20,000 nt of DNA from an uncultured virus (IMG/VR IMGVR_UViG_3300042886_000689) (taxonomy: Duplodnaviria > Heunggongvirae > Uroviricota > Caudoviricetes), in IMG/VR virus record IMGVR_UViG_3300042886_000689, one strand, 5' to 3'. Both the position numbers and the translations under genes were made by a program. Numbering within the stretch: position 1 is the stretch's first letter; each line of letters opens with the position of its first letter. Shown here piece by piece: positions 1-16,875 of this stretch. A model generated the notes under the pieces. That model saw nothing but the letters and a program-made list of their open reading frames with translations, searched no databases and had not been told where the DNA came from.

Positions 1-2214
1 GACGATGTTAGATTTCGTGCCACAAAAGATGGAAACATTGATCTTTCTCAAGATTCATTAATTTTATTGAAAATAATGAAGCTCTGCCAAATGGCAAATC
101 CTAAATTTAATGCCGATGGAACGGTTTTATCCGTTGACCCAATATCATATTGCTACGATGTGACGAGTGATCAGATTATTGCAACAATAAATGATTTTGT
201 TAAATACGGTGCGACTTCAATGGATGCCGGTTCTTCTCAAACAACTTATAACTTGCTAAGAAGTAACCAGTTAAATCTCGCTCGCATGGGGCTTTTTGTT
301 GTTAACTCTGGAGTAGATTCCTACGCGACTCAGAGGGGTTATTACAGTTCAAGAGTGTCCTCGGAGAACGACCCTTCACTGACAAGTATCCCTCCGGTGT
401 ATGCTGTTTTTACTTGCAACTTAGCAGGAAGGTCATACATTGCATCTAATCCTATGTACATTTACCAGAGCAATTTCGGAGATGGAAAAACTCTTAGCTC
501 GGGGTTTACTTACGCCCCCTTGGACTTGTTGAAGAAAACGTCTAACTCAAAAGCATATATATTGGCTCAATCTTATATATTCAACAATTATACTGGGCGA
601 TATAGTAATGGGCCATTAAAGCCAGTTGAGCTTGGTGTGCGAATTCTTGAAGCAACAAAAGCCATTGGTTCGCAATTTAGAGATGCGCCTATGGCTGGCT
701 CTAGCTTTTTCATCGACACTTCTTATTCTTCTGTGCCGACTATCTACAATGCGTTGATTGTCCTTGCTGATGTTGAAATGATGACTGGGTTTAATTCTGA
801 ATATCTTAAAACCATTCCATTTATTTTTGCGTCAAAGCCTGTAAGTGAAGTAATGGGTGATTACATCGCTGTGACTGAACCAAATTTCTTTTATGGCAAA
901 GATGTTCCAGTTGCAAAGTACGCAATGAAAACACCAACCGCCTCGTACACGCAAGATTTCGTAACCGCTGGCCCTACGTTTGCCGAATGGTTTCAGCGAA
1001 TAACCGTAACTCTAAACAATGGAAAGTCATTTGTTTTTCCAAAACAGTCAATTTCTCCGTCAATAAACGTGGGATTTATTTCCCCGTTGAGTATGAATGA
1101 TAATCTTATTACTTATTGGAAAAATTCATTTACTTTTTTATTCACTGATACTTATACATACCAACCTACGCTTGCTGCCCTTGAAATGAATAAATCGAAA
1201 TATCCGTTTCCTCTTCAATTTCCAAGAAAGCTGGTGGAAGGTGATTTCCGTATCCGTAACGGATTATTGTATTCAGACGCATCCAAGTTTTACGCTCTTG
1301 AATTTGTAAGATTTTCACAAAATACAATTGATGCACTTACCACACTTGCAATTCTTCAAACATCTATTGATGAAGTTCAAAAAGATGTAGCAAGTGGTAT
1401 CATTATAAGGGAAGGCAATGGCCAAACAAGGACTTCATGGTATTGGGAGCTTGGAACAAAGATGCCATTCATTCATCCAGTAAGCTTGAAACCCATTGCG
1501 GCAGATCAATACATTGCAGAATTAGTGGTCGAGTCAGCTATTAGTTGGAACAATGCCCTTGCTGGCATCAACACTCTTACTGCTAATTTAAAAGCTCAAA
1601 ACGATGCTTCGTACCAGAGAGCATACGAAGCATATCTTCGCGGCGAAGCTCAAGCGAAGGGGCCTGAAGCACTTGCAGACTACGAAAGAAAGCTCGCTAC
1701 AGGATTCTTTTACACTGACAATGGCTTTAATTATTGGAGGCCATTTACTCCACTAGAAATTTCTCTCATCCAATCATTTAAAGATCAAGCACAATTGTCA
1801 CTCACGATTTCAAATGAAAATATTCTAATCCTTGCTAAAAACAGACTTGATCAAGACGCAGTAAACGCCGCCGTGATTCAGGCCAACCAAGACAAGATGG
1901 AACTAGCTCGGGTTATGGCCAATGTTGAACTAAAGCAAATAGCCGATACCGAGCTTTCAAAAATGATTGTTCCGACACTCTCGTATATTATCGCAAGAGC
2001 GGAAATCGAGGGGGGTGTCCCTACTTCTATTCTTGAGAAATGGACTCAAGAGAATCCATATTATTATCTCAGACAAGACACAAGCGATGCAGTTAATACT
2101 CTTCTTGGTTATTTAACGAGTGCTGAGCAAAAAGTGACTACCGCCCTAGTCGCTGATGCTATTGCCGAAATTGAATACACTAAGGCCCTTCAAGAATTAT
2201 TCACCATAATATAA
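1..2214 (+). CDS. Large hypothetical protein, probably virion-associated; 5'-truncated
   Basis: Frame 1 is open from base 1 (DDVRFRATKDGNIDLSQDSLILLKIMK...), so the start probably lies upstream of the window. N-terminal part is aromatic/beta-rich; C-terminal ~230 aa is Ala/Gln/Leu-rich and helical. Confidence 0.8.
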   Translation, partial: DDVRFRATKDGNIDLSQDSLILLKIMKLCQMANPKFNADGTVLSVDPISYCYDVTSDQIIATINDFVKYGATSMDAGSSQTTYNLLRSNQLNLARMGLFVVNSGVDSYATQRGYYSSRVSSENDPSLTSIPPVYAVFTCNLAGRSYIASNPMYIYQSNFGDGKTLSSGFTYAPLDLLKKTSNSKAYILAQSYIFNNYTGRYSNGPLKPVELGVRILEATKAIGSQFRDAPMAGSSFFIDTSYSSVPTIYNALIVLADVEMMTGFNSEYLKTIPFIFASKPVSEVMGDYIAVTEPNFFYGKDVPVAKYAMKTPTASYTQDFVTAGPTFAEWFQRITVTLNNGKSFVFPKQSISPSINVGFISPLSMNDNLITYWKNSFTFLFTDTYTYQPTLAALEMNKSKYPFPLQFPRKLVEGDFRIRNGLLYSDASKFYALEFVRFSQNTIDALTTLAILQTSIDEVQKDVASGIIIREGNGQTRTSWYWELGTKMPFIHPVSLKPIAADQYIAELVVESAISWNNALAGINTLTANLKAQNDASYQRAYEAYLRGEAQAKGPEALADYERKLATGFFYTDNGFNYWRPFTPLEISLIQSFKDQAQLSLTISNENILILAKNRLDQDAVNAAVIQANQDKMELARVMANVELKQIADTELSKMIVPTLSYIIARAEIEGGVPTSILEKWTQENPYYYLRQDTSDAVNTLLGYLTSAEQKVTTALVADAIAEIEYTKALQELFTII

Positions 2215-2223
2215 GAGATACCT

Positions 2224-4350
2224 ATGACCATTATAAATGTTGGCCGTAGACAAGAAAAATCAGGCCCTACATATCAATTCAAAGATACTTTAGGCATGAT
2301 GCCTGAAAAAATGGCAAGCAAGCTTTATATGCAAGCGTATCACTTTCATCATGATTACAAAGTTATCGAAGACGAAACAATGGGATGGGGGATTAGTTTT
2401 AAGCGAGTCATAAGTGATATTGGAAAAACCATCAATCGTGCATTTAGGGATACGAATAATTTTATTGCAAAAGCAGCAAAGGATATTGCTAAAGTCGCTG
2501 AACCAGTAATGGTTGTCGTTAAAGACGTTGGCTCATTCACAGAAGATGTTTACGCCGCTGCCAAAAAAACTGCCTTGGCCGCGCTCCCTCCTTCTCTTCG
2601 GACATTTGTTGGCACCGCTGTGACACAACTAGAAAACAGGGTCACAAACCCAGCCGCAACGGTTGTGGCTATTACTCAGTCGGCTGGTGAAGTTGCTCAT
2701 AATATTGTAAAAGAAACAGGAAACGCTACAGAGGTTGTTTATAGGGAAGTTACAAAGCCAGCATTTAAAATAGCTAGAAATGTTGCAAACGAAACTATCT
2801 GGCAACCAATTCATAAAGTTGTCGATGTTGCTATCCTTCCAATTCTTCCAAAATCACTCAGGGACAAGGTTGAAAAAGTAATGGACATTCCTGATGGAGC
2901 ATTTAGAGGGAAATTAACCGATAAAGATGTTCTTGCAGGATTAAAGGCATACGTTCAAATCGCTACGCTTCCGGCTGCTACGGCAGGGCGATTTTCTAAC
3001 GATGTTATCAATAGATTAAAAAAAGATGCAATCCTTGGCCCTTTCTTGGAAAAAGTTGATATGTATTCTGGGGGCCTTCTTACTTCGGCCCAGAGTCTCG
3101 CCGCTACTCCTGATGATATTTACAATGATAGAAATATTGACTGGAAAGCAAGGCTCATTGATGCTCTTAAAATATACCTAGCAACTGTCTCCGTTACGGC
3201 CCTCATGAGAAGCACAGCCGTTACGGCTGTTGGAACCGAAACGGGCTTAAATACAACACCGATAGGTAGGGCTGCGCTTGCCGTTGGCGTAGCTTATGGC
3301 TCTGCTTATGCTGGTGGAAGCCTGACAAATCTTACTGTCAAAATTGGAACCGATGCGGCCAAGGATGCTGCCATAAATGAAGCCAAAGCCGCCACGATAA
3401 AAGAAGCTGTTAAAAAAGGCTGGGTTGACGATGCCTATACAGCACGAATGATTTTGTCGGCTGGTGGGAAGTTTTATACCGCTAGTGGCACAGATCAAAC
3501 ATTGATGCAAACAATGGGTAAAGTTCATGATGGTGAATTTCAAAGCCTAGTAAATCGCGAAATTCAACAAAGAACAGGATTGCCAATAACTTATGCACAC
3601 TTGGTTGATGTTTATAACACCGACTGGGCCACACTTGCCGAGGACTTGAACAGACAAATGGCCAGAATGGTGCCGACAATGGGCACATCTGATGGCGAAT
3701 TTTTAACACAAATGGGAAGAAACTTTGTAGATGAAATGAGAAGAATTCCTGCTAATTTCTCAAATATTGGAAGCAATGTTTTAGATGAATTGCAAAGAAC
3801 TCCTGAAAACATGGCAAGACTCGCAAGTATTGTGGCTAAAGAAGCTGATAGAACACCAGAAAATATTGCACGAATCGCCACAAACATTGCTAGAGAGTCA
3901 GTAATTGCCTCTCAAAACGCCGCTGAAGCCGCTGCGCAAGCCGCCAAAGATGTTGCAGCCGAAGCCGCAAGAACACCGGCCAACATTGCAACGGTGTCTG
4001 AAAATGTCGCCACAACGGTTATTAAGGCCGGTGGAGATATTGCATCCGAAGTCGCAAAAACACCTGAGAATATTGTAAACCTAGTTTCCAACGTATCAAT
4101 CACTCCCCCTAGTGTTTCTCCTCCCAAGATTGACTTATCAAACCTTGATGACTTGCTTAAAAAGTATGGCCCAGACTTACTTGCATACCTACAGTCAACC
4201 CATGGGCCTAACTACGCTCAAATGTCGTTCACACCGAGCCAGTTAAGCGATATTGAATTAAATTTTAATCAAAAGAAGAAGAGTAAAGCACCACTTCTTG
4301 TTGGAATTTTTGCGATACTTGCCGCTGGATATGTCGCAACTCAGGATTAA
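2224..4350 (+). CDS. 708-aa Ala-rich helical protein with amphipathic repeats and C-terminal membrane anchor (putative virion membrane/entry protein)
   Basis: Long ORF 9 nt after the previous stop; ExxRTPEN-type repeats; C-terminal KKKSK followed by hydrophobic APLLVGIFAILAAGYVA. Confidence 0.8.
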   Translation: MTIINVGRRQEKSGPTYQFKDTLGMMPEKMASKLYMQAYHFHHDYKVIEDETMGWGISFKRVISDIGKTINRAFRDTNNFIAKAAKDIAKVAEPVMVVVKDVGSFTEDVYAAAKKTALAALPPSLRTFVGTAVTQLENRVTNPAATVVAITQSAGEVAHNIVKETGNATEVVYREVTKPAFKIARNVANETIWQPIHKVVDVAILPILPKSLRDKVEKVMDIPDGAFRGKLTDKDVLAGLKAYVQIATLPAATAGRFSNDVINRLKKDAILGPFLEKVDMYSGGLLTSAQSLAATPDDIYNDRNIDWKARLIDALKIYLATVSVTALMRSTAVTAVGTETGLNTTPIGRAALAVGVAYGSAYAGGSLTNLTVKIGTDAAKDAAINEAKAATIKEAVKKGWVDDAYTARMILSAGGKFYTASGTDQTLMQTMGKVHDGEFQSLVNREIQQRTGLPITYAHLVDVYNTDWATLAEDLNRQMARMVPTMGTSDGEFLTQMGRNFVDEMRRIPANFSNIGSNVLDELQRTPENMARLASIVAKEADRTPENIARIATNIARESVIASQNAAEAAAQAAKDVAAEAARTPANIATVSENVATTVIKAGGDIASEVAKTPENIVNLVSNVSITPPSVSPPKIDLSNLDDLLKKYGPDLLAYLQSTHGPNYAQMSFTPSQLSDIELNFNQKKKSKAPLLVGIFAILAAGYVATQD
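3727..4095 (+). repeat. Degenerate ~18-aa coding repeats (ExxRTP[E/A]N[I/M])
   Basis: EMRRIPANF, ELQRTPENM, EADRTPENI, EAARTPANI, EVAKTPENI in the translation. Confidence 0.8.
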
Positions 4351-4401: not shown

Positions 4402-5028
4402 ATGAAATATGTGAAAAATGATTTTGGTTCAATGGGGACACTTGGCATCTGGCCATTTGACTCTGCTAAAACATTCACAAAAGCTCAAGACCTTGCAGCC
4501 GGAAAAGCTTGGATTCAAAAAATTTACACCACCCTCAAACCAAATGTTACTTTTGCACAATTTGTAACAACTCTTCGCAAAGGTTCTGCAAACAATCCAA
4601 CTCCATTGTCAGACGCGGAGTATGATGCTTGGCTAACATCTAAAGGTTTCGCAGTAAATCTTCAGCCTGAAACACCGGCCAAAGTTCTAACTTCAATGGC
4701 AAGGGCTTTTGCTGCAAATAAAAATATGCTTCCAACAAGAGAATCAATTGATTCAGCATTTTTAAATCCAAATGTTATCAAATGGACATACTGGGATGCG
4801 GCAAAAATAACAGCTTCTCAAACAGCAACACAAGCAGCGGCAATAGTTTCCGATGTTGGAACAGTTCTTGAGACTTCTGGTTCAGCACTTGCCTTTATTA
4901 TCAAATACAGAATACCGATTATTCTTCTTGCCCTTGGTGGAATTGGATATTTTGCCTACTTAAACAAGGGCGAAATAAAGTCTCGTATAAAAGAAAAAAC
5001 ATATAAGAAACTAGGTCTAGGGAAATGA
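4402..5028 (+). CDS. Putative virion membrane protein (208 aa) with C-terminal TM segment
   Basis: AAGAGG SD before ATG 4402; hydrophobic IPIILLALGGIGYFAYL followed by a basic tail; N-terminal DFGSMGTLG motif. Confidence 0.8.
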   Translation: MKYVKNDFGSMGTLGIWPFDSAKTFTKAQDLAAGKAWIQKIYTTLKPNVTFAQFVTTLRKGSANNPTPLSDAEYDAWLTSKGFAVNLQPETPAKVLTSMARAFAANKNMLPTRESIDSAFLNPNVIKWTYWDAAKITASQTATQAAAIVSDVGTVLETSGSALAFIIKYRIPIILLALGGIGYFAYLNKGEIKSRIKEKTYKKLGLGK

Positions 5029-5423
5029 ACTTCTTTAAATGGGTGAATATTTTCTTTTGTGGCGATCAAAACGACAGAAAAAAAGTTGTTCAGGCCGTAC
5101 TTGAATCAATTTCAATTTTTAAAAAAGGCAAACCATCAAAACAGGGCGATGAAGCTGCAAAACTTCTCACTTCTGATAAAGTTGAGTTAATTGGTGTTGT
5201 TCCGCATATTGAGTACATTCGTGTATCAAGTAGAAGTGCGGAAGATTTAGAAGTTATTTGGAATCACCGCTTTTCAGTACCAACACTTTTGTACAGAATT
5301 AAAGACTCACCTTTTTTACTTCTTGCAAACCCCAATATTGAGTATAATGATTCTAAGCTTCTTGAGATTCCAGAAAATGCTGATCTTAAAGAGTTACAAG
5401 ATATTTTAGGAATAATAGGATAA
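5025..5423 (+). CDS. Hypothetical protein (132 aa)
   Basis: ATGA overlap with the upstream stop; fills the gap up to the next SD; ends in GIIG. Confidence 0.8.
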   Translation: MNFFKWVNIFFCGDQNDRKKVVQAVLESISIFKKGKPSKQGDEAAKLLTSDKVELIGVVPHIEYIRVSSRSAEDLEVIWNHRFSVPTLLYRIKDSPFLLLANPNIEYNDSKLLEIPENADLKELQDILGIIG

Positions 5424-5435
5424 TCGGAGGAATTT

Positions 5436-6851
5436 ATGGATTTGCAAATTTTGTATAATAATCCAAGTAGAAAGAAAAAATCGTTTAGATCAAAGCTTAA
5501 TCCATCAAAAAGATTAAAAGCTTCCAAGAGAAGTAAGCTTCGCTCCTCTGGTAAGTCATTCTTTGGCATGAAGAAGAATCCTACTACTGGCAAAGTATCA
5601 TTAATAGAAAGAGCGTTAGGTGTGTTCAAAGCTAAAAAAGAAGAAATTCTTAATAAACCAAAGGAAAAAATCGTGGCTAAGAAAAAAAAGAAGTCAACAA
5701 AGAAAGTTGCTAAAAAAGCAACTAAAAAAGCAACTAAAAAAGCCGCTCCGAAAAAAGCGCGTAAAAAAGTTGCTAAAAAAGCAACAAAGAAAGTTGCTAA
5801 AAAAGCAACAAAGAAAGTTGCTAAAAAAGTTGCCCCTAAAAAGGCTAGAAAAAAAGCAGCTAAAAAAGCAGCTAAAAAAGCAGCTCCGAAAAAAGCGCGA
5901 AAAAAAGCGAGTAAAAAAGCTCGTAATAAAGCAGCTAAAAAAGCTGGCACTTTACCACCGCCAATTCCTACTGCTTCTAACCCTAAGAAGAAAAAAGCTC
6001 GTAAAGTTAGAAGAAAAAAAGGTTCAAAGAAGTCATCTTCCAAGAAAAAATCTTCTAAAAAGAAGAAAGCAACAAAAAAGAAAGCAACAAAAAAGAAAGC
6101 AACAAAAAAAGTTGCCAAAAAGTCTACTAAGCCTAGCTATAAAAAAGCTATGAAGAGTAAATCTCGTAAGTCGAAGAAGAATCCATCGTATAAGAAGAAA
6201 AATTATTCATTAAAAAACAATCCAATCGGAGGAGCTATGTCAAAGGTATCAAAATTTACAAAAAATGTTCTAGCACATGATCTTGGTGAAGCTGGTGGTC
6301 TATTAGCTGGTGGAGCGGCAATCCAAGGGATTCGTCACCTTCAAGCTAAATTTGCCCCACAATTAAGCTCAACTATCGCTCAAATTCCTTTGATCGGTAA
6401 TTTCCTTGCTTCTAACCTTGATGCAATCATTCCTTTGACTGTAGGTGCTATTGCTCACAAATACGTTAAAAATGCTAACGTAAAAATGCTCGCTAAAGGC
6501 ATCATCGGTGCTTCAGTAGTTGGAATCGGTTCTAAAATCTACGCTTCAGCCGCTCAAATGGCCGGTGCTAACATGGCAGGAATCATCGCTGTTCCTTCTA
6601 TGAACGGAATTATCGCTGTTCCTTCAATGAACGGTTTCGGAGCAATGAAAATGACTAACGATTTCGGTTCATCACCGGCTTCGATTTCATCTTCTGACTT
6701 CGGTGCATACGGTGTTGGTCTATCTGGTGAAGGTGGATACTTACAAGATGCTGATTTTGATTCTGCTGGCCCTCGCATGGTAGTTGCTCGTCAACCAGAT
6801 TCATTAAACGGTTACGAAAATGTTGATTACGACGATATGGGTGAATTTTAA
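5436..6851 (+). CDS. Histone H1-like Lys/Ala-rich DNA-condensing region fused to a hydrophobic Gly/Ala-rich membrane-type domain and an acidic Gly-rich tail (putative core protein)
   Basis: GGAGG SD at 5426-5430; KKATKK/KKVAKK/KKAAPKK repeats over aa ~80-260; hydrophobic helices aa ~283-380; acidic C-terminus. Confidence 0.85.
   Translation: MDLQILYNNPSRKKKSFRSKLNPSKRLKASKRSKLRSSGKSFFGMKKNPTTGKVSLIERALGVFKAKKEEILNKPKEKIVAKKKKKSTKKVAKKATKKATKKAAPKKARKKVAKKATKKVAKKATKKVAKKVAPKKARKKAAKKAAKKAAPKKARKKASKKARNKAAKKAGTLPPPIPTASNPKKKKARKVRRKKGSKKSSSKKKSSKKKKATKKKATKKKATKKVAKKSTKPSYKKAMKSKSRKSKKNPSYKKKNYSLKNNPIGGAMSKVSKFTKNVLAHDLGEAGGLLAGGAAIQGIRHLQAKFAPQLSSTIAQIPLIGNFLASNLDAIIPLTVGAIAHKYVKNANVKMLAKGIIGASVVGIGSKIYASAAQMAGANMAGIIAVPSMNGIIAVPSMNGFGAMKMTNDFGSSPASISSSDFGAYGVGLSGEGGYLQDADFDSAGPRMVVARQPDSLNGYENVDYDDMGEF
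5695..6120 (+). repeat. Low-complexity tandem coding repeats (12/15/24-nt units such as GCAACTAAAAAA, AAAGTTGCTAAAAAAGCAACAAAG, AAGAAAGCAACAAAA)
   Basis: Directly visible A-rich tandem repeats encoding KKAT/KKVA/KKAA. Confidence 0.9.
6579..6632 (+). repeat. 27-nt tandem duplication encoding GIIAVPSMN twice
   Basis: ggaatcatcgctgttccttctatgaac / ggaattatcgctgttccttcaatgaac; the two differences are synonymous. Confidence 0.9.
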
Positions 6852-6856
6852 TTTGC

Positions 6857-6956
6857 ATTTTTGCAAAAATTAACGAGAATAAAAGAGTAAATAAAAGTCG
6901 GCGTATTAATCGCAACAACAAAGAACCGACTCTATAAATGAAACGACTTCATTTAT
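6857..6956 (+). promoter_or_regulatory. Structured intergenic leader upstream of candidate capsid gene
   Basis: Perfect 14-bp palindrome ATTTTTGCAAAAAT (6857-6870); AGTCGG/CCGACT inverted repeat (6896-6901/6926-6931); 9-bp stem ATAAATGAA/TTCATTTAT (6934-6956). Confidence 0.5.
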
Positions 6957-6981
6957 TAACAGATGTTCTAAGGAGAACCAC

Positions 6982-7581
6982 ATGGCATCGACACAGTTAA
7001 ACGAAGTAGGCGGCGTAGCCCTTCGTGACCAAATCAAACAACCGTTATATGATAGTATTGACATTTCGTCAGCATCATCAATAACAGAAGAACGTCAGTT
7101 TTTCGCTAACACTCAAGGTAAGTCTCTAGTTCAGTCTAACCTTCGTGGTAACGGTTCTCTTGAGCGTAACAAGTCTTTCCGTATTATGGGAATTCAAGTT
7201 GACGCGATTTCTCAAGATGCTGACAAGCAAGAACTTCTTGCTCTTTTCTCAACTTATTCTTATGTTCAACTTTGGTTGGCTGAGAAGCAATACTGGGAAT
7301 CACCTCTTCGCTTTGTAACTGGTAAGATTCGTTCTACAGTTGCTCTAGCTGGTGCTACTGATGCTGCTTCAGTTTATAACCAATTTGGTGACGCTGGTTG
7401 TAACCCAGTATCTTTCCAAGGTGAACAAACTTTGGATATTGGCCCTTTAACTAATTTCTACTTGGTTTTCAAAGTAGAAGGTGCTTCTGCTGGTCAGATC
7501 ACTAAGATGACTCCATCTGCTGATTACCCAATCCGCTTTGTTGCATCTCTTAAAGGTATTCTTCGTCGTCCAGTTCAATAA
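6982..7581 (+). CDS. Candidate major capsid protein, putative single jelly-roll fold (199 aa)
   Basis: Strong TAAGGAG SD; codon choice typical of high expression (CGT, AAC, GGT, GCT); alternating beta-strand patterns (FRIMGIQVD, YVQLWL, FYLVFKVE, IRFVASLKG); strong terminator immediately after. Fold is inferred. Confidence 0.65.
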   Translation: MASTQLNEVGGVALRDQIKQPLYDSIDISSASSITEERQFFANTQGKSLVQSNLRGNGSLERNKSFRIMGIQVDAISQDADKQELLALFSTYSYVQLWLAEKQYWESPLRFVTGKIRSTVALAGATDAASVYNQFGDAGCNPVSFQGEQTLDIGPLTNFYLVFKVEGASAGQITKMTPSADYPIRFVASLKGILRRPVQ

Positions 7582-7594
7582 TCTGGAATTGTTT

Positions 7595-7626
7595 GGAGAG
7601 GGAGCTTCGGCTCTCTCTCCTTTTTT
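7595..7626 (+). terminator. Rho-independent terminator
   Basis: 11-bp stem GGAGAGGGAGC/GCTCTCTCTCC (one G-U), cUUCGg tetraloop, followed by T6. Confidence 0.92.
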
Positions 7627-7682: not shown

Positions 7683-8351
7683 ATGGACGCTAAGTCACAA
7701 TTAATCCAAGATATTCTTGGAATTCAAGATGGAATCTCAAAAGTAAGAGCGCGTGAACGTCAAGTTCAGAAGCTCGAAAATTCTAATCCGTTAATGTATT
7801 CACAACCTGCTGTGAAAACAAATTCATTAGAAGATCATCTCGCTGGAATTCTTCCACCAGAACTAATCCCTTCAAACGTAGGGGATATTAATCAAGTTCA
7901 GTGGGGATTCTTTTACGAAGTTGATTTTGACTTTGGTACAGACCCAACTTTTGATGCCAATACGGCACAAAGAAAAAGCTTTAAAGTTTCTTCGGAAGCG
8001 GCTTTTTTAATCACTCGAATTTATCGCGATCAAGATGACACTGGTGTGGCTGGCTACGAGGCCCCACTTACTCTTACTCTTCGCGACCTTCAATCTAGTC
8101 GTCAATTTATGGATAAAGGTATTCCGCTTCAATCTATCCCTTCTAAAGGATATTTTTACGAGCTACCTGTTCCATTTCTTTTATATCCTGCCGCAAGTGC
8201 TGAACTTGAACTTAAATGTTGGCTTCCGAATGGAATCAACTTAGAGACAGAAGGCTCAAGCAAACAAAGCTTTACTCTTTACGGGGCAAAAGTTCGTGTT
8301 CAAAGCCCTGATGCTATTTTCAAGGCAATGTTTCAAAAGCATAACGGTTAA
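7683..8351 (+). CDS. Beta-rich virion protein, putative single-jelly-roll minor capsid protein; paralogue of 8361-9008
   Basis: ATG 7683 after AAGGGA is preferred over the TTG at 7641; shares INxVxWxFF, SFxVxxEAAF, LxDxxSSRxFM and GxxxRxQ motifs with the next gene. Confidence 0.7.
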   Translation: MDAKSQLIQDILGIQDGISKVRARERQVQKLENSNPLMYSQPAVKTNSLEDHLAGILPPELIPSNVGDINQVQWGFFYEVDFDFGTDPTFDANTAQRKSFKVSSEAAFLITRIYRDQDDTGVAGYEAPLTLTLRDLQSSRQFMDKGIPLQSIPSKGYFYELPVPFLLYPAASAELELKCWLPNGINLETEGSSKQSFTLYGAKVRVQSPDAIFKAMFQKHNG

Positions 8352-8360
8352 GGAGTATTT

Positions 8361-9008
8361 ATGAGTAACGGAATTAATTTAAAAGATATGTCTCTTGAGC
8401 AACTTGCAAAAGTCAAAAGAGATATGATGATCAAGCAAGCCCAACTAAAAGCAGCCGTTGATATTCGCGAAAGCGAAGTAAAGGCACCAGTTGGAGCTTC
8501 AAAATATTTTCGCGATCTTGCAAACGGCGATGCCCTTGCAATCAACAACGTAATCTGGCCATTCTTTTTCACAACATCTTCAGACGTTTTACGCGCTGGT
8601 GGTGGACAACAACAAGTTAGCTTTCAAGTAACTCAGGAAGCCGCATTTGTTTGGACTGAAATGGTTAAAGTTGTTTACGCTGTTGATTTCGATGCCCCTG
8701 TTCCAACGATTGAATACATTGACCCAAATGGTGCCGGAAACTCTGATGCCAACGGATTAAGATTTACTCTTTCTGATGGTGACTCCTCAAGATCATTCAT
8801 GAATGATTACGTTCCTCTCGATCAAGTTGGTTCACCTACTCAAGCATTTGTCCCTGATCGCCCAATGTTTTTATTGCCTCTACAATTAATGAATATCAAT
8901 CTTATCAACAATAACCCATCTCGTGATTTTGTTGTTTTCATGATGTTCAAAGGTTATAGACTCCGAATCCAAGGAACGAATGATCTCCAAAACCTTGTAA
9001 CGCGGTAA
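8361..9008 (+). CDS. Beta-rich virion protein, putative single-jelly-roll minor capsid protein; paralogue of 7683-8351
   Basis: TAAGGAG SD; collinear shared motifs with the upstream gene; helical N-terminal arm. Confidence 0.7.
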   Translation: MSNGINLKDMSLEQLAKVKRDMMIKQAQLKAAVDIRESEVKAPVGASKYFRDLANGDALAINNVIWPFFFTTSSDVLRAGGGQQQVSFQVTQEAAFVWTEMVKVVYAVDFDAPVPTIEYIDPNGAGNSDANGLRFTLSDGDSSRSFMNDYVPLDQVGSPTQAFVPDRPMFLLPLQLMNINLINNNPSRDFVVFMMFKGYRLRIQGTNDLQNLVTR

Positions 9009-9607: not shown

Positions 9608-9931
9608 ATGTCATTTATTGATCTTGCATCATTCCCAAATTCACGAATCAAACCTCGTCCGGCCACAAGAATATGCTCAATTGATGAGATGAATATTCCG
9701 GCAAATACACCAACTTTAGTTCGTGGTGTATTGGACGAGAGAACTTATTTAACAATTTATAATCAATCTACAACGGCTCCCCTTCGTTATCTTCGCGGAA
9801 CAAACGTAAATATTTCCACCGAAGGATTTTATTTAAGTGCTGATCGCGCCGTTGATTTAGAAGGCCCACAAGATTTGTGGGTTTGGAGTCCATCAAACAT
9901 TATCGTGAGCATTGATGAGGGGATAGGTTAA
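9608..9931 (+). CDS. Small beta-sandwich virion protein (107 aa)
   Basis: Starts 1 nt after the previous stop; RTYLTIYNQS...LRY...GFYL...LWVW strand pattern. Confidence 0.7.
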   Translation: MSFIDLASFPNSRIKPRPATRICSIDEMNIPANTPTLVRGVLDERTYLTIYNQSTTAPLRYLRGTNVNISTEGFYLSADRAVDLEGPQDLWVWSPSNIIVSIDEGIG

Positions 9932-10237: not shown

Positions 10238-12766
10238 ATGAGTTTAATTAATGGTAAATTTATCCTCGGAAGTACGGTCACAGGCTCGGCTATTCGTCTA
10301 GACAATGATCAATTTCTACGCGCAAGAAACGCTGCTGATACTGGTGACATTAACATTTTAAAAGTAAATGCAAGCGATGAGATTGAATTTTCTCAAATTC
10401 CAATAGTTACTGGCCTTGGTGCTCTTGCTCTTGATTCTGATGTTGCCGCACTTCAAGGCGATGTTTCTACTCTTCAATCACTTCAAGCTGACTATTTACT
10501 CCTCGACGGAACAAGGGCCATGACTGGTTCCTTGAACATGGGTACTCATACAATTACAGACGTAGTTGATCCGGTTGATCCGCAAGATGCAGCAACTAAA
10601 TCATGGGTTGAGGCGCAGATTTCTGCTGGTGATCCTAATAAGGCAAATACTAATCTCGATAACTTAGTTGCAAGTGCTGATGCTACTTTTGGATATAAGC
10701 TTTACTCGAACGTCACGTTCGATAAAGGGGCAGGGGTAGCAGTAAGTATTTTCGGAAAAGAAAATATTGCTGGTCAAGCGTCTGGTAGCATGAGTGTCAA
10801 CTCAGGAAATATTACTGGTGGTTCCGCATTAACTTCAGGATTTAATCTTATTTCATCTGGTGCCGTAACTGGTTCTGGGAACGGAACTTCTGGTGCTGTT
10901 CAATTAAGTTCCGGTAATACAATTACAGGCAACTCGGGCCAAGCTGGTTTGTTTTCAGGTGTTTCTTCTAATGGTGGAAATACTGGCCCTGCCACTGTTC
11001 AATCTGGGGCTGTAACTTCTGGCCTGTCTGGTAATGCCACGATGAGTTCTGGTAATGCTTCAACAACTGGTTCGTCTGGAAGTCTATTTATTAGAAGTGG
11101 AACAGTTTTAAATGGAACTTCTGGTAACGCTCAAATGTTTTCAGGAAGTGCTACAACAGGTACGTCTGGAAATGTTGCTGCCCAGTCAGGTTCAGCGACT
11201 ATAGGCAGTACAGGCCCTAGCTTTATGGGGTCGGGAAGTATCACGGGTATAAGCTCAACTGGTACTTCGGGAAGCGCAAATCTATATACAGGAAGCTTAG
11301 TAGGAATAAATTCAACTGGTGAAACAGGCCCAATCGAAATAACTGTCGGTGATATTCTTGGTGCCGGTGGAGTCGGTAACTCTGGTTATGTTTTACTCCG
11401 CTCAGGTAATACTCTTGCTGGAAATTCTGGCATAGTAACAATTAACTCTGGTGAATCTAGTCTTGGCAACTCTGGTGACATTAATGTTGCTACAGGTATA
11501 TCAACCGTTCTAACGGGTCAAGTTAGAGCGGCTTCTGGTAACGCAACTGGTTCTGGAAATACTGGTGAGGCAATTTTTGAATCAGGCTCATCCGATAGCG
11601 GTACTACAGGTGTGGCCGTTTTAAATTCTGGTGATACTCAAACAGGATTCACTGGTGAAGTTTATGTTCAAACAGGTGAGGCTTTAGCCTCTGGTGGTTC
11701 TTCTGGTGCCATGATTATTCAAACAGGAAATGCCGTTGATACGATAACGGGTGCTCTTTCAATTTTTACAGGCTCATCTATTGATTCTTCTGGTGAAGTC
11801 TTAATCTATTCAGGAAATTCTGTAGATGAAATAACTGGCAACGCATCTCTTTCAAGTGGTGACAGCACAAACGCAGCTTCAGGCGCGGTCATTTTAAAAA
11901 CAGGTTCAGGTGTCGGGTCAGGGGTTGTTCAAATTTTTTCAGGTGAGTCTACGTCAAGTGGTGCTGCATCTGGTGATATTTTTATGTCAACTGGAACTGT
12001 GCCTGTTGATACAAACACTGGTTCAATGTTCTTTGCTACTCTTGCCGTTACAGGAACAGGAGAATCAGGGAAGCATGAATTCACTACTGGTTCTTCGGAA
12101 ACAGGCGCGACAGGATTGTTTAACGTAACTACAGGGTACTCGGAATCTGGTGCCACTGGAACAATTGAACTTTATACAGGTGGAACAAACACTGGCAGTA
12201 CGGGTGGAATATATCTCCTCACTGGAACAACGATAGCCTCTGGGGTGGCCCCTGTAAGTGGTGTAGTACAGATTGGTACAGGTGGTGGCAATGGTGATGG
12301 TGTATCGGGTGCAATCTACATAGTCACTGGTGGAACGCTTGGCACAGGAAATTCGGGCGATGTGTTCATCGGTACTGGTGCCTGTACTGGTACAGGTGTT
12401 AAAGGTATTGTTCACATCGAGACAACTCTCACGATGTTCAACAATTACATTTCAGACGTTCTCGACCCTGCATTGCCTCAAGATGCTGCGACGAAGGCAT
12501 ACGTTGATGCACAGGTAATCGGTGGAGGCTTAACGCCATTTAAGCAATCGTACACTGTTTTAGGCCCTATCCTTGTGAATACTGCCGTTACACTGACTCA
12601 TTCATGTATTGCAGATTCAATGCTTGCCGTAATTACTTCAGGCCCAATTTTGGAAGAAGGAACTGATTATACAGTTTCAGGAACAACACTTACTTTGCTT
12701 GCTGCGTCACCAGTAATCGCTCTCTTGGATTTAGGTGATTTTGTAGCACTTCAATATGCTTATTAA
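10238..12766 (+). CDS. Gly/Ser/Thr-rich repetitive fibre/spike protein (842 aa)
   Basis: AAGGA SD; short N-terminal coiled coil; two DPxxPQDAATKx[WY]V[ED]AQ motifs flanking ~550 aa of [ST]GxhxhxSG repeats; C-terminal GTDYTVSG domain. Confidence 0.8.
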   Translation: MSLINGKFILGSTVTGSAIRLDNDQFLRARNAADTGDINILKVNASDEIEFSQIPIVTGLGALALDSDVAALQGDVSTLQSLQADYLLLDGTRAMTGSLNMGTHTITDVVDPVDPQDAATKSWVEAQISAGDPNKANTNLDNLVASADATFGYKLYSNVTFDKGAGVAVSIFGKENIAGQASGSMSVNSGNITGGSALTSGFNLISSGAVTGSGNGTSGAVQLSSGNTITGNSGQAGLFSGVSSNGGNTGPATVQSGAVTSGLSGNATMSSGNASTTGSSGSLFIRSGTVLNGTSGNAQMFSGSATTGTSGNVAAQSGSATIGSTGPSFMGSGSITGISSTGTSGSANLYTGSLVGINSTGETGPIEITVGDILGAGGVGNSGYVLLRSGNTLAGNSGIVTINSGESSLGNSGDINVATGISTVLTGQVRAASGNATGSGNTGEAIFESGSSDSGTTGVAVLNSGDTQTGFTGEVYVQTGEALASGGSSGAMIIQTGNAVDTITGALSIFTGSSIDSSGEVLIYSGNSVDEITGNASLSSGDSTNAASGAVILKTGSGVGSGVVQIFSGESTSSGAASGDIFMSTGTVPVDTNTGSMFFATLAVTGTGESGKHEFTTGSSETGATGLFNVTTGYSESGATGTIELYTGGTNTGSTGGIYLLTGTTIASGVAPVSGVVQIGTGGGNGDGVSGAIYIVTGGTLGTGNSGDVFIGTGACTGTGVKGIVHIETTLTMFNNYISDVLDPALPQDAATKAYVDAQVIGGGLTPFKQSYTVLGPILVNTAVTLTHSCIADSMLAVITSGPILEEGTDYTVSGTTLTLLAASPVIALLDLGDFVALQYAY
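10770..12420 (+). repeat. Roughly 30-35 degenerate 15-18 aa coding repeats ([ST]G-x-hydrophobic-x-hydrophobic-x-[ST]G)
   Basis: e.g. SGAVQLSSG, SGNATMSSG, SGSLFIRSG, TGEVYVQTG, SGDVFIGTG. Confidence 0.85.
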
Positions 12767-12806
12767 TCGCTAATGGGTTTAGCCATTTCCTATTAGTTGA
12801 TGAAAG

Positions 12807-12837
12807 AGGGGCGACATTATGTTGCCCCTTTTTATTT
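12807..12837 (+). terminator. Rho-independent terminator
   Basis: Stem AGGGGCGACA/TGTTGCCCCT followed by TTTTATTT, ~40 nt after the fibre stop. Confidence 0.85.
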
Positions 12838-12842
12838 GAGCC

Positions 12843-12871
12843 TTGATGGTCGGGATTATGTGAGTTAAAAT
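12843..12871 (+). promoter_or_regulatory. Candidate sigma70-type promoter for the second spike gene
   Basis: TTGATG (12843-12848), 17-nt spacer, TAAAAT (12866-12871), directly after the terminator and upstream of GAGGT SD and ATG 12898. Confidence 0.55.
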
Positions 12872-12897
12872 TTAAGAAGAAACAACTCGAGGTCATT

Positions 12898-14604
12898 ATG
12901 ATATTTAACGGAAAATTTGTAGCCTTCAATTCTTTAACTGCAAGTAGAGCGGTTATGTCAAACGGTTCTGGTAATTTAATTACGGCAAACGGTTTAACTT
13001 CGCAATATCTTCGTGGCGATGGCTCACTTGCCAACTTTCCAAGTTCAGGCGGTGGAGGAAGCTCTGTTAGTTATTATCTCAATGGTGGAACGGCTTCAGA
13101 TATTGCTACTTACTATCAAATGTCGAAAATAGCTGTTGTTGGAACTGGTGCAGACTTTACCGCATCTTCGGGAACCACAGTATTGATTGCACAATTTATG
13201 ACCGATGCTGGCGACCCATCTCTTTTAAATATTCCTGCCGGAAATTGGAATTTTGAGATGTACTTCAGTGCAAGCTCAAGTGGTGGTACGCCTAGCTTTT
13301 ACGTTGAATTATACAAATACGATGGTGTTAGTTCTACCTTGATTTCTTCAAACTCGGCCACGCCAGAAGGGATTACAGGAGGTACAGCTATTGATTTGTA
13401 TTTTACGGCCCTAGCGATTCCATTAACAACTCTAACTTCAACTGACAGGCTAGAGATTCGCGTTTATGTTACAAGAAGTGGAAAAAATATAACCCTTCAC
13501 ACACAAGATTCACATCTTTGTCAAATTATAACCAATTTTTCATCGGGACTCTTATCACTAAATGGTCTAGTTGCTCAGAATCAATTCTTTGCAACTGGCA
13601 CGACTGGCACTGATTTTAATATTAGCTCATCTGGATCAACACACACTTTCAATATTCCTGTTTCATCTGCAACAAACACTGGCCTTCTTAGTTCATCTAA
13701 TTGGACTACGTTTAATAATAAGCTTTCAAAAGGCGTGAAAACGATTTTCTGTATTGATAATGGTGACTATGCAAATGGGCAAGCGGCCATTGATGCTGCT
13801 TCTCAAGGAGATGCAATCGTATTCGGAGCAAAGGCAGGAGGGTGGGGTGATCTTGTTATCCCATCGGGAAAAGGTATCTCTATTCTTGGCCTTCAAGCAG
13901 ATGATTCAAAATATGTTAGAACTGGCTCTATAACTTTTAGTCCAACAACGGGAACGATTGGAGTCAACGAAGTTTATATAAGTAATCTTTATATCACTTC
14001 GGCAACACAAGCGGCTGTTCTTTTTGGCGGTACAGTGGCCGCAAGGCTCAGGGTTTTTAACTGCTACATTGCCCCTACTTCAAATCAGAAAGCAGTTTCT
14101 CTTACGAATACGGTAACTACATCGCCATCGGTTTACTCGTCTGTTTACTTTAATAGCTGTGTTATTGATGCAGGGATTTCAACTTCATCGGTTTTTGAAA
14201 GCAATACTCCATACGTTAGAATAACTCACTCTACAATTGATGGCGGCTCAATGTCCTTGCAGTTAAATGCTGGGACTCTCGAATCAGACAACAATGCCTT
14301 TTCACTTGACCGTCTTGGAGAGATTATCAACATTGCAGGAGGCACCCTTCTTTGTACAAGATCGACAATTGCAAACGCTACGACAAATGGTTCTGGGATA
14401 CTTGTTGGAGCGGCAGGGGTTATCGGAAATGTTAGTAACGCATTTTCCGTAGCAACCGGCACAGGCTACTGCCTTCGCGGAACTGGTATTCACGCTTATG
14501 CTTATATCACTTTTGCAAACTCGGCTTTATTGGCATACAACGTGAAAGTACAAAGCACATTAACGTCTGTTCCATACACAACAGCATTTACCCTTGCACC
14601 ATAA
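12898..14604 (+). CDS. Putative receptor-binding spike/fibre protein with C-terminal beta-helix-like region (568 aa)
   Basis: Fibre-type motifs TASRAVMSNGSGNL, YLRGDG, SLNG and GLLSSSNWTTFNNK; QAAIDAA...GDAIV helix-cap followed by repetitive beta-helix-like strands (ISNLYI, VFNCYI, FNSCVI, ITHSTI). Confidence 0.75.
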   Translation: MIFNGKFVAFNSLTASRAVMSNGSGNLITANGLTSQYLRGDGSLANFPSSGGGGSSVSYYLNGGTASDIATYYQMSKIAVVGTGADFTASSGTTVLIAQFMTDAGDPSLLNIPAGNWNFEMYFSASSSGGTPSFYVELYKYDGVSSTLISSNSATPEGITGGTAIDLYFTALAIPLTTLTSTDRLEIRVYVTRSGKNITLHTQDSHLCQIITNFSSGLLSLNGLVAQNQFFATGTTGTDFNISSSGSTHTFNIPVSSATNTGLLSSSNWTTFNNKLSKGVKTIFCIDNGDYANGQAAIDAASQGDAIVFGAKAGGWGDLVIPSGKGISILGLQADDSKYVRTGSITFSPTTGTIGVNEVYISNLYITSATQAAVLFGGTVAARLRVFNCYIAPTSNQKAVSLTNTVTTSPSVYSSVYFNSCVIDAGISTSSVFESNTPYVRITHSTIDGGSMSLQLNAGTLESDNNAFSLDRLGEIINIAGGTLLCTRSTIANATTNGSGILVGAAGVIGNVSNAFSVATGTGYCLRGTGIHAYAYITFANSALLAYNVKVQSTLTSVPYTTAFTLAP

Positions 14605-15529: not shown

Positions 15530-16150
15530 ATGGCAAAAAAAGTAACTCTCCCAATTGGAAATAAAGCAATTTTTGATTCACTGGCAAAGATCGCCCTCAA
15601 AGTCGAAAAAAAGAGGCCGGACAATGTTCAAGAGTTTATGAAAGAAGTCAGCGACGAACTTGCCGAAGAAGCTTTTCTTTTTAGCTTTACCCCATCAGGA
15701 GAGATTGGCGACAATCCAAGAAATAAAAGCGAGTCAGAAGTATTTCTTAAATCATTTGATAATATCTTTTCAAAAAACTATGGCGTAATTGCTCTGGCCA
15801 TGAAAGGTGAGTCTAGGGCTAAAATAAATAACGCCATCAGAAGAGTTAAGGCCGCATTGGTTGAATTATCAAAAATTTATACAAAAGAAATGCTACCAGT
15901 AAGAGATAGCCGCTCATCAAGTCAGGTTAATACCGAAATTGATAAATATTTAAACCTGTTTATAACCACGCTACTCTTTAACCAAGTTGGAAATGTTTTA
16001 TCAATCGAGCCTTCAGACATTTTAAGAGAGATGAAGAAATTTAAAACTCTTGGAATTAGCGATGCAATGACTGATAAAGAAAAATTAAAGATTTTAAAAA
16101 GCTCTGAAAATAAAAAAAGGTTCATCGACAAAATTAAAAAATTTCAATAA
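15530..16150 (+). CDS. Hypothetical helical protein (206 aa)
   Basis: TAAGG SD; long ORF ending just before a hairpin pair. Confidence 0.8.
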   Translation: MAKKVTLPIGNKAIFDSLAKIALKVEKKRPDNVQEFMKEVSDELAEEAFLFSFTPSGEIGDNPRNKSESEVFLKSFDNIFSKNYGVIALAMKGESRAKINNAIRRVKAALVELSKIYTKEMLPVRDSRSSSQVNTEIDKYLNLFITTLLFNQVGNVLSIEPSDILREMKKFKTLGISDAMTDKEKLKILKSSENKKRFIDKIKKFQ

Positions 16151-16153
16151 ATA

Positions 16154-16210
16154 GGGTATCAGGTGTGATTTGATACCCCATTTACCGAATTGTACCCTAT
16201 TTAAAGGGTA
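16154..16210. terminator. Hairpin pair between convergent genes, probable terminator(s)
   Basis: GGGTATCA...TGATACCC (16154-16178) and TACCCT...AGGGTA (16193-16210); U-tracts are weak. Confidence 0.55.
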
Positions 16211-16608
16211 GCTTGGTCTTCATCTTCGTATTCAATTTCTTCGTCTTCTTCATCTTCATCAGCCGCTTCAATTATTTGTTCAGCCTCGGATAAAAGAATT
16301 TTATAAACTTCAGGGTAGTCGCTTTCAAGAAGCTCAACGATTGTATCATTCAATTCATTGTCATCTTCTTCTTCCCCATTGTTATCGTCTTCAGGGACGT
16401 AAACATTTGTGAAGGCAAGGCTCTCGCTCCATTCTTCGTGAACAAACGGAACTGGAATTGTGGGCCAGTGAACGAAGTTCAATCTTTTTGGGATTACAGC
16501 AATCGAACCATCGGCTTGCTGGATTTCCACGTTGATCATTTGATAGCTTTCTACAAGGCCATCAGTTTTGTTTTCATCGGTTGCGTGATTCACTACGAAA
16601 TATGCCAT
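16201..16608 (-). CDS. Highly acidic hypothetical protein (135 aa)
   Basis: AAGGAG SD 6 nt before ATG at 16608 (MAYFVV...), preferred over 16641; D/E tracts EDDNNGEEEDDNE and DEDEEDEEIEYEDED. Confidence 0.85.
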   Translation of the reverse strand: MAYFVVNHATDENKTDGLVESYQMINVEIQQADGSIAVIPKRLNFVHWPTIPVPFVHEEWSESLAFTNVYVPEDDNNGEEEDDNELNDTIVELLESDYPEVYKILLSEAEQIIEAADEDEEDEEIEYEDEDQATL

Positions 16609-16875
16609 TTTTTTCTCCTTAGAGGGGTTTCTATGCCCCATAGCTTATCAAGCCTTCCCCACTCCTGAAAAGCCCTTAATTGCCCAAAAAACAAGGCACT
16701 TTTGCCAACTGCCTCCTAAAATGGGCACCTTTTAAGGGTGTCTAAAAGATAGACACTTTTTAACATTCGTAGAATCAGCTACTTATCGGTTTAATCATAA
16801 TGTTTGACACAAAGCGTCTGGAATCGGGTTTTCGTGAGATAATCTAAAAATAAGAAAACAACAAATGGAGTTTTT
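16609..16875. promoter_or_regulatory. Divergent control region with operator-like inverted repeat
   Basis: Non-coding gap between divergent genes; GTGTCTA-N5-TAGACAC (16738-16756); TGaGATAAT extended -10 candidate (16835-16843); clustered GGCA/TGCC motifs (16680-16730). Confidence 0.55.

Follow-up and report, generated by a model that had tools for sequence, protein, structure and literature searches.

The prevailing view of bacterial dsDNA viruses is that naked DNA is pumped into a shell that has been formed beforehand; the contrast is laid out in PMC12090768. The window analyzed here, that is, the whole 20,000-nt stretch of DNA from an uncultured virus, raises the question of what a protein with a long polycationic region would do when it is encoded directly ahead of a capsid gene. 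In the preliminary description this product was read as one fusion protein, with histone H1-like repeats condensing the genome and a membrane-type domain tethering it to an internal membrane, and assembly around a nucleoprotein core instead of motor-driven filling alone was raised as a possible consequence. Our analysis suggests that it is probably not a single protein: an internal start, itself conserved, speaks for a second product that lacks the arm.

Architecture and Conservation of the Long ORF

The ORF at positions 5436-6851 (plus strand) encodes, in its long form, 471 aa (50.4 kDa, pI 10.8) and is preceded by a GGAGG ribosome-binding site (5426-5430, plus strand) located 5 nt before the start, with an anti-Shine-Dalgarno (anti-SD) duplex energy of -9.5 kcal/mol. 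The long form is built of a Lys/Arg arm (aa 1-262), a Gly/Ala helical domain (aa 263-400 are Gly/Ala-rich), and an acidic repeat tail. Features added here to the earlier reading are six Asn-Pro (NP) motifs, a start at codon 268, a possible start at codon 80, and a 2x9-aa repeat.

The ORF is genuine, and it is conserved. Contigs of run X10 cover positions 5000-6092, including the arm part of the ORF, by tiling with zero differences, and zero indels are listed inside the ORF in contigs from four lake-water runs, although the whole gene is found on no single contig. The repeat region breaks contigs and draws unrelated K-rich reads. All 24 datasets listed as containing the sequence are lake metagenomes, with no RNA dataset among them; eight of the 24 are possible sources. 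A search of Pfam, PHROG, and NCBIfam with the 471-aa protein yielded no family at E 0.1, where low complexity may mask weak repeat-only matches, and PDB sequences gave no match (best E 0.48). No description of a family combining such an arm with such a helical domain was found in the literature covered, most subscription papers and bioRxiv supplements lying outside that coverage; the accessible parts of PMC8328091 and of a Hawaiian fumarole preprint contain nothing relevant to the family. The protein combines two known kinds of virion protein, is absent from the libraries and papers searched, and has a function that we infer. Our analysis contributes a test of the internal start at the level of DNA, and it connects the family with SSIP-1 and with the gene slot of VP12, VP15, and gp44, both discussed below.

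The Polycationic Arm and Its Family

The arm (5436-6224, plus strand) contains 100 Lys, 14 Arg, and 5 Asp/Glu residues (43.5% K+R), giving a net charge of +109; within aa 81-260, K+R reaches 50% and acidic residues are absent. The motifs KKAT, KKVA, and KKAAP occur seven, six, and two times, respectively, and their region (5676-6209, plus strand) is also repetitive at the DNA level, with tandem periods of 12/24 and 15. The H1-like repeats had been said to extend over approximately 260 aa; a Lys-rich arm of that length is indeed present, but the repeats themselves fill only aa ~81-230. K/A/P-rich repeats are shared with the histone H1 tail, chlamydial Hc1/Hc2, and AlgP, so the likeness to H1 holds in composition, but it does not go further: the protein has no globular H1 domain, nothing in Pfam, PHROG, or NCBIfam matches it, and its homologs often use Arg.

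Searching 1.84 billion representatives with aa 262-471 gave 73 matches, and a profile search added 37; the resulting family (n = 110) includes the 471-aa protein and excludes one 95%-identical copy. In line with the expectation that homologs of the C-terminal domain would carry basic N-terminal extensions, an arm was found in 93 of the 110 proteins. The remaining 17 are short or fragments and were not counted as natural arm-less genes; one of them falls into the same 90% cluster as a member of 505 aa. Family arms span 51-435 aa (median 273), with a median K+R of 0.40 and a median net charge of +96, and those of at least 180 aa (n = 85) carry +67 to +167. Since the arms are unalignable and many are Arg-rich (up to 47 Arg), it is, judging from the sequences, the charge of the arm that is conserved and not the H1-like motif. 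Scans of viral_contigs found no relatives except SSIP-1 itself, those of genome_contigs none, and tblastn of the capsid protein and the helical domain against cultured phages returned nothing significant. One tail-only family fragment is labeled as coming from a Bdellovibrionaceae MAG, which is too weak a hint for host assignment.

The arm of the 471-aa protein is interrupted by NP at aa 9, 22, 48, 182, 249, and 262, the first of which lies at the end of a conserved N-terminal leader (5436-5465, plus strand); in 76 of the 93 arm-bearing proteins, an NP is found no later than residue 16. Across family arms, 340 of 763 Asn residues precede Pro, compared with 22.5 expected, while the other proteins of the window (n = 15) have Asn before Pro in only 15 of 262 cases. 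The residues ahead of NP in family arms are basic, and NP stands immediately ahead of the helical domain in 61 of 63 family proteins. The motifs are under strong selection, and we think it most likely that they serve as docking or processing marks, a role that we propose. A short basic stretch with NP, resembling the arm motif, was also observed at the N-terminus of the protein encoded by L005:11170-12024, a homolog of window ORF 15530-16150.

Helical Domain and Tail

The preliminary description had suggested a structure prediction of the C-terminal region. For aa 262-471, with a 72-row alignment, AlphaFold2 modeled helices across aa ~264-375 (block pLDDT 73-97), followed by a low-confidence tail. 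The confident part of the model, with pLDDT above 90 over most of its length, has three main helices (aa 283-306, 328-343, and 347-375; 6282-6560, plus strand). The tail (6579-6848, plus strand) comprises the 2x9-aa repeat (aa 382-399), DFG-type motifs, and an acidic end, aa 401-471 having a net charge of -9, in line with the acidic tail described before. Of the hydrophobic helices reported earlier, the helices are supported by the model, but their hydrophobicity is borderline: the best 19-residue Kyte-Doolittle window of the protein scores 1.49, below the usual cut-off of 1.6 for a transmembrane helix. In the family, the median of this maximum is 1.68, and 72 of 110 members reach at least 1.6; the corresponding values for the membrane-associated or structural proteins VP12, VP15, and gp44 are 1.95, 1.75, and 1.21. 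The hydrophobicity of the helical domain looks marginal for membrane insertion.

No fold in BFVD matched the C-terminal model at E 0.001. The best VIA match (Z 6.6) was to unspecific helical membrane proteins, and no identity was assigned from it; the Atlas feature search returned only unnamed, mostly viral clusters (0.88-0.90), with structure TM of at most 0.44. Runs of small genes whose products have C-terminal hydrophobic anchors were observed at L006:3102-6851 and L004:341-2523, and several of these genes open with a MK/MR..GHFG/DFG motif, echoing the DFG motifs of the tail.

A Predicted Internal Start at the Arm/Domain Junction

At the junction between the arm and the helical domain, a second GGAGG is located 4 nt ahead of the ATG of codon 268 (6228-6239, plus strand). 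Its anti-SD pairing equals that of the gene's own start (-9.5 kcal/mol), and it ranks first of the 16 internal starts. The predicted short product (aa 268-471; 6237-6851, plus strand) would have 20.8 kDa and pI 5.8. Optimal codons make up 30 of 45 past the Met268 start, the highest share in the window, compared with 6 of 25 before it; the capsid gene has 19 of 37. Other lineages show less of a difference (14/33 after vs. 14/50 before, 9/37 vs. 6/32, and 13/33 vs. 10/26). A possible weaker internal start, AAGGA followed by GTG at codon 80 (5661-5675, plus strand; -5.6 kcal/mol, rank 3 of 16), may give rise to a third form; in two close relatives, Met stands in its place.

In the loci L003/L009 and L004/L005/L006, the junction has TAAGGAG 6 nt ahead of an ATG, the encoded residues being different, and this ATG ranks first of 10 to 27 in-frame internal starts. 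Altogether, the junction ATG is the top in-frame internal start in six of six genes, which represent only three lineages (-9.2 to -9.5 kcal/mol, on a par with the gene's own start). At the protein level, where counts were taken over related sequences, an SD-coding stretch is possible before the first Met past the junction NP in 58 of 77 cases vs. 174 of 1137 for other Met residues; allowing every Met of the junction gives 79 of 88. The junction residues of the 93 arm-bearing proteins fall into the classes GG (48), RR/RS-NP-M (18), xE (5), RG/GE (4), and other (18), and all classes except the last permit the same DNA signal in different frames. There are four amino-acid solutions at the junction, and the classes switch repeatedly on a quick, weakly resolved tree. 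Because the signal is kept while the encoded residues change, the gene probably gives two nested products, a short membrane/scaffold protein and a long DNA-binding form. In L009 (positions 960-1062) the family gene appears frameshifted right after the junction, as seen on a single contig.

The junction Gly-Gly could also be taken for a protease site, the adenain cleavage consensus being of the Gly-Gly type. The junction does not fit an adenain-processed core precursor: 27 of the 93 proteins have xE, RG/GE, or RR where GG would stand, and no protease family was found among the window proteins scanned.

The Capsid Gene and Its Neighborhood

The ORF ends 130 nt ahead of a capsid-type gene (6982-7581, plus strand), and its position directly upstream of a capsid gene, noted earlier, stands. 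The 199-aa protein, probably the major capsid protein, has 33 listed homologs (53-99% identity) and was modeled as an all-beta single jelly roll (pLDDT 75). In a Foldseek search against PDB the top match was SPV1 (6oj0, E 5.9e-4), and VIA gave Z 8.0 for SPV1 (rmsd 3.6, 140 aligned) and also 8.0 for satellite panicum mosaic virus, a plant satellite virus, followed by HHIV-2 (7.1), HCIV-1 (6.2), P23-77 VP17 (5.9), and VP16 (5.6). In these model comparisons the middling Z scores set the fold class, single jelly roll, and not the family. No significant sequence match was obtained among cultured phages, nor was the profile comparison with SSIP-1 gp45/gp46 significant. The top BFVD match of the capsid model, the unnamed I1ZBH9, may be SSIP-1 gp46, to which it is equal in length (211 aa).

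An alignment search with the capsid protein yielded ten metagenome loci; synteny is judged here on close relatives only (capsid 75-88% identical). The family gene lies directly upstream of the capsid gene in seven of them (six by BLAST, the seventh by its tail only), and the other three are too short, so the proposed association of C-terminal-domain homologs with the capsid gene is borne out among these relatives. The upstream neighbor, a conserved gene for 132 aa (5025-5423, plus strand), keeps its place in L004 and L006. A motif common to L003-L006 was recognized by eye in the intergenic region (6901-6926, plus strand) and is a candidate promoter of the capsid gene; in the same interval (6852-6981 in the window, and L003-L006), a hairpin right past the stop codon and this motif together make a candidate terminator plus late promoter. 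Behind the capsid gene a strong intrinsic terminator was predicted (7595-7620, plus strand), followed by two conserved genes starting at 7683 and 8361 (7683-9008, plus strand), candidates for further capsid proteins, whose homologs match each other with roughly 30% identity. In L004 (10686-11713) and L005 (2363-2812), the capsid gene is separated from the conserved gene that follows by an insertion of one or two unrelated genes.

Elsewhere in the window, two 700-aa genes (67-4350) are present in L004 and missing at the same place in L006. A 107-aa beta-rich protein (9608-9931) is a candidate penton by its SSIP-1 gp48 position (22% identity, not significant). Two long Gly/Ser/Thr-rich genes (10238-14604) are fiber- or spike-like; the L005 homolog of the first encodes 1632 aa, with only the N-terminus in common. 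A very acidic 146-aa ORF (16201-16641, minus strand) lies where the structural genes meet small genes of early type.

Outside the window, a transglutaminase-like gene (Cys-His) was found upstream of the family gene in L006 (2512-3105). Among 50,697 phage records it matches only gp34 of SSIP-1 (39%, E 5e-17), which makes SSIP-1 the only cultured phage to match this gene of the module. It is preceded by a Gln-rich 644-aa ORF, as the SSIP-1 structural protein gp34 is preceded by ORF33. A further 128-aa protein (L006:242-628) may resemble the four-helix-bundle proteins of 23S rRNA intervening sequences.

Comparison With Proteins in the Same Slot

In cultured single-jelly-roll viruses, the product encoded right before the first capsid gene is a small virion protein, namely VP12 in SH1, VP15 in P23-77, ORF12 in IN93, VP6 in SNJ1, and gp44 in SSIP-1; the gene for the 471-aa protein occupies the same slot as VP12, VP15, and gp44, ahead of a single-jelly-roll capsid gene. 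VP12 is the major membrane protein of SH1 (PMC5332951), and VP15 of P23-77 is membrane-associated (PMC12429598). The slot proteins of Helvetiavirae (VP15, ORF12, VP12, and VP6) share their position with the family and have short hydrophobic helices, and an NP pair is invariant in VP15 (two NP in 71 of 71 relatives). They differ in having only 94-138 aa, with neither a polycationic arm nor an acidic repeat tail. SSIP-1 gp44 also has two NP, is annotated as structural, and is encoded directly before gp45/gp46; the NP are followed by three hydrophobic, Gly/Ala-rich stretches and then by a Gly-rich tail, a layout that recalls the family, but it lacks a basic arm (17 K+R, 26 D+E) and an SD at the internal Met.

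Sequence comparison gave no significant homology to these proteins. Profile-profile alignment (hhalign) with VP12, VP15, and gp44 gave E 0.1, which is not significant. The domain profile ranked the five slot genes 1/389, 2/233, 3/270, 10/604, and 16/221 (rank/frames), but the same scores were matched by 13, 6, 9, 25, and 121 of 300 shuffles (same order), and reversed gp44 and reversed SNJ1 VP6 scored above the real sequences. The 471-aa protein sits and looks like a slot membrane protein, its likeness to VP12, VP15, and gp44 being one of position and appearance.

More distant parallels exist for the arm. SPV1 (Portogloboviridae) has a single-jelly-roll shell, a layer of lipid on the inside, and a genome condensed by protein (PMC8459092), but there the DNA is condensed by a separate nucleocapsid protein, VP1, and the virus has a 20-kb genome and an archaeal host, while the capsid relatives found here are on contigs of 45-74 kb. 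Adenovirus VII, V, and mu (PMC12090768) and ascovirus P64 (PMC6163548) are large cationic DNA-condensing virion proteins too; these belong to eukaryotic viruses and have no membrane-type anchor, nested start, or family match.

Virus Affiliation and Packaging

In our reading, the virus is tailless, SSIP-1-like, unclassified, and of the single-jelly-roll type, with a place near Singelaviria (PMC12714852). No tail, portal, or terminase family was found among the window proteins, except for a short PHROG "tail" match in the 842-aa fiber-like protein. Because contigs with close capsid relatives reach 74 kb (including one of 71,774 bp in the 90% cluster), the window is part of a genome. SSIP-1 itself is described in PMC6260650 and PMC6356626 as an unclassified, membrane-containing virus with a T=49 shell and a 44-kb genome.

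In this partial genome no Walker A motif was detected in the window or in L002-L006, which cover some 8 kb ahead of the gene and 13 kb behind it, and 1259 frames of five cultured viruses gave no match. For this part of the genome, the result is compatible both with core-first assembly and with a motor encoded elsewhere. Between the transglutaminase-like gene and the family gene of L006 there is no ATPase motif, whereas SSIP-1 has one there, in a Walker A protein annotated as structural. Packaging ATPases are annotated in the records of SH1, P23-77, and SNJ1. The Odin group lacks an ATPase (PMC5894146). Among single-jelly-roll viruses, Helvetiavirae use a motor, whereas the core of SPV1 is condensed by protein and a packaging ATPase is absent; SPV1 is a proposed ancestral form (PMC8812541). 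As adenovirus shows, core proteins as such do not decide the packaging mode (PMC12090768).

Proposed Function and Alternative Explanations

The reading that we favor, with somewhat better than even confidence, is that of a nested-start virion gene encoding a short membrane/scaffold protein and a long arm-bearing anchor that neutralizes, partly condenses, and tethers the genome. The short product (Met268, 21 kDa) would be the abundant, bulk helical membrane/scaffold protein in the major-membrane-protein slot of Helvetiavirae, and the long product (50 kDa) would add to this anchor a disordered arm carrying a charge of about +100. The arm would neutralize and partly condense the genome, tying it to the membrane or to the inner face of the shell, and the ratio of the two starts would set the number of arms per particle. 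With one long copy per hexamer in a T=49 shell (480 copies, T being taken from SSIP-1), the arms would neutralize 36-58% of the charge carried by a genome of 72-45 kb. Topology imposes a constraint on this scheme. During PRD1-type assembly the lumen of the vesicle corresponds to the non-cytoplasmic side, and an arm of +109 that lacks a signal peptide should be unable to get there, which counts against the tether. By our own reasoning, an arm made in the cytoplasm would meet DNA only on the same side of the membrane, which favors co-assembly as in SPV1.

The topology problem is avoided if the protein is a membrane/scaffold component whose arm lies between membrane and shell as an electrostatic adaptor to anionic lipid and capsid protein, like P23-77 VP11, and the genome is pumped by an ATPase encoded elsewhere; we regard this as possible, though considerably less probable than the nested tether. 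VP11 is likewise basic (50 K+R of 187 aa), and the title of the paper on it, as cited in PMC6356626, names lipid-protein interactions. The packaging ATPases of SH1, P23-77, and SNJ1 also fit an adaptor, as do the empty procapsids of HCIV-1/HHIV-2 (PMC6414509). Yet an arm of this size (~270 aa, +100), unconserved in sequence, seems larger than such a role would need, the slot proteins of cultured viruses have no arm, and L006 lacks the ATPase motif where SSIP-1 has it. More doubtful is a membrane-less particle with a core polyprotein cut at NP into basic peptides and an amphipathic helical module for scaffolding or membrane penetration (cf. adenovirus pVII/mu and VI), the transglutaminase-like protein being the protease. 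The excess of NP in the arms, the basic residues before it, the marginal hydrophobicity, and the Cys-His gene in the L006 module would all suit such processing. Against it, the junction Gly-Gly is better read as ribosome-binding codons, because KE, RG, or RR substitute for it while the DNA signal stays; moreover, the NP pairs of VP15 are kept in a virus whose record lists no transglutaminase-like enzyme, the transglutaminase-like gene lies outside the window, and the best structural relatives of the capsid protein include internal-membrane viruses.

A non-virion protein that, in the infected cell, holds DNA of virus or host at the cell membrane would have a compatible composition, and the hairpin and conserved motif ahead of the capsid gene suggest separate transcription control; we consider it improbable, as the fixed place before the capsid gene is a virion-protein slot in four cultured viruses and the codon bias is capsid-like. 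An artefact of low complexity or assembly, which the broken contigs and the unrelated reads drawn by the repeat region might suggest, has a negligible probability and is refuted by conservation: 93 independent records share the layout, and the four runs show no indels in the ORF. The most far-reaching reading, about as doubtful as the core polyprotein, is a widespread lineage of large (45-74 kb) tailless viruses of bacteria in which single-jelly-roll shell and membrane assemble around a genome already condensed by a membrane-anchored polycation, with no packaging motor, nested starts setting the ratio of arm to scaffold and the transglutaminase-like enzyme later cutting the arm at NP.

By the analysis of the internal start, the most conserved junction residues of the family, which might be supposed to form a protease site, are reassigned to ribosome binding. 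Should the nested tether be correct, the virus would belong to a bacterial lineage in which the membrane-protein slot bears a +100 arm and the share of copies with the arm is tunable. Such a lineage would link the core and motor modes of genome packaging and make the question testable in vitro with one protein.
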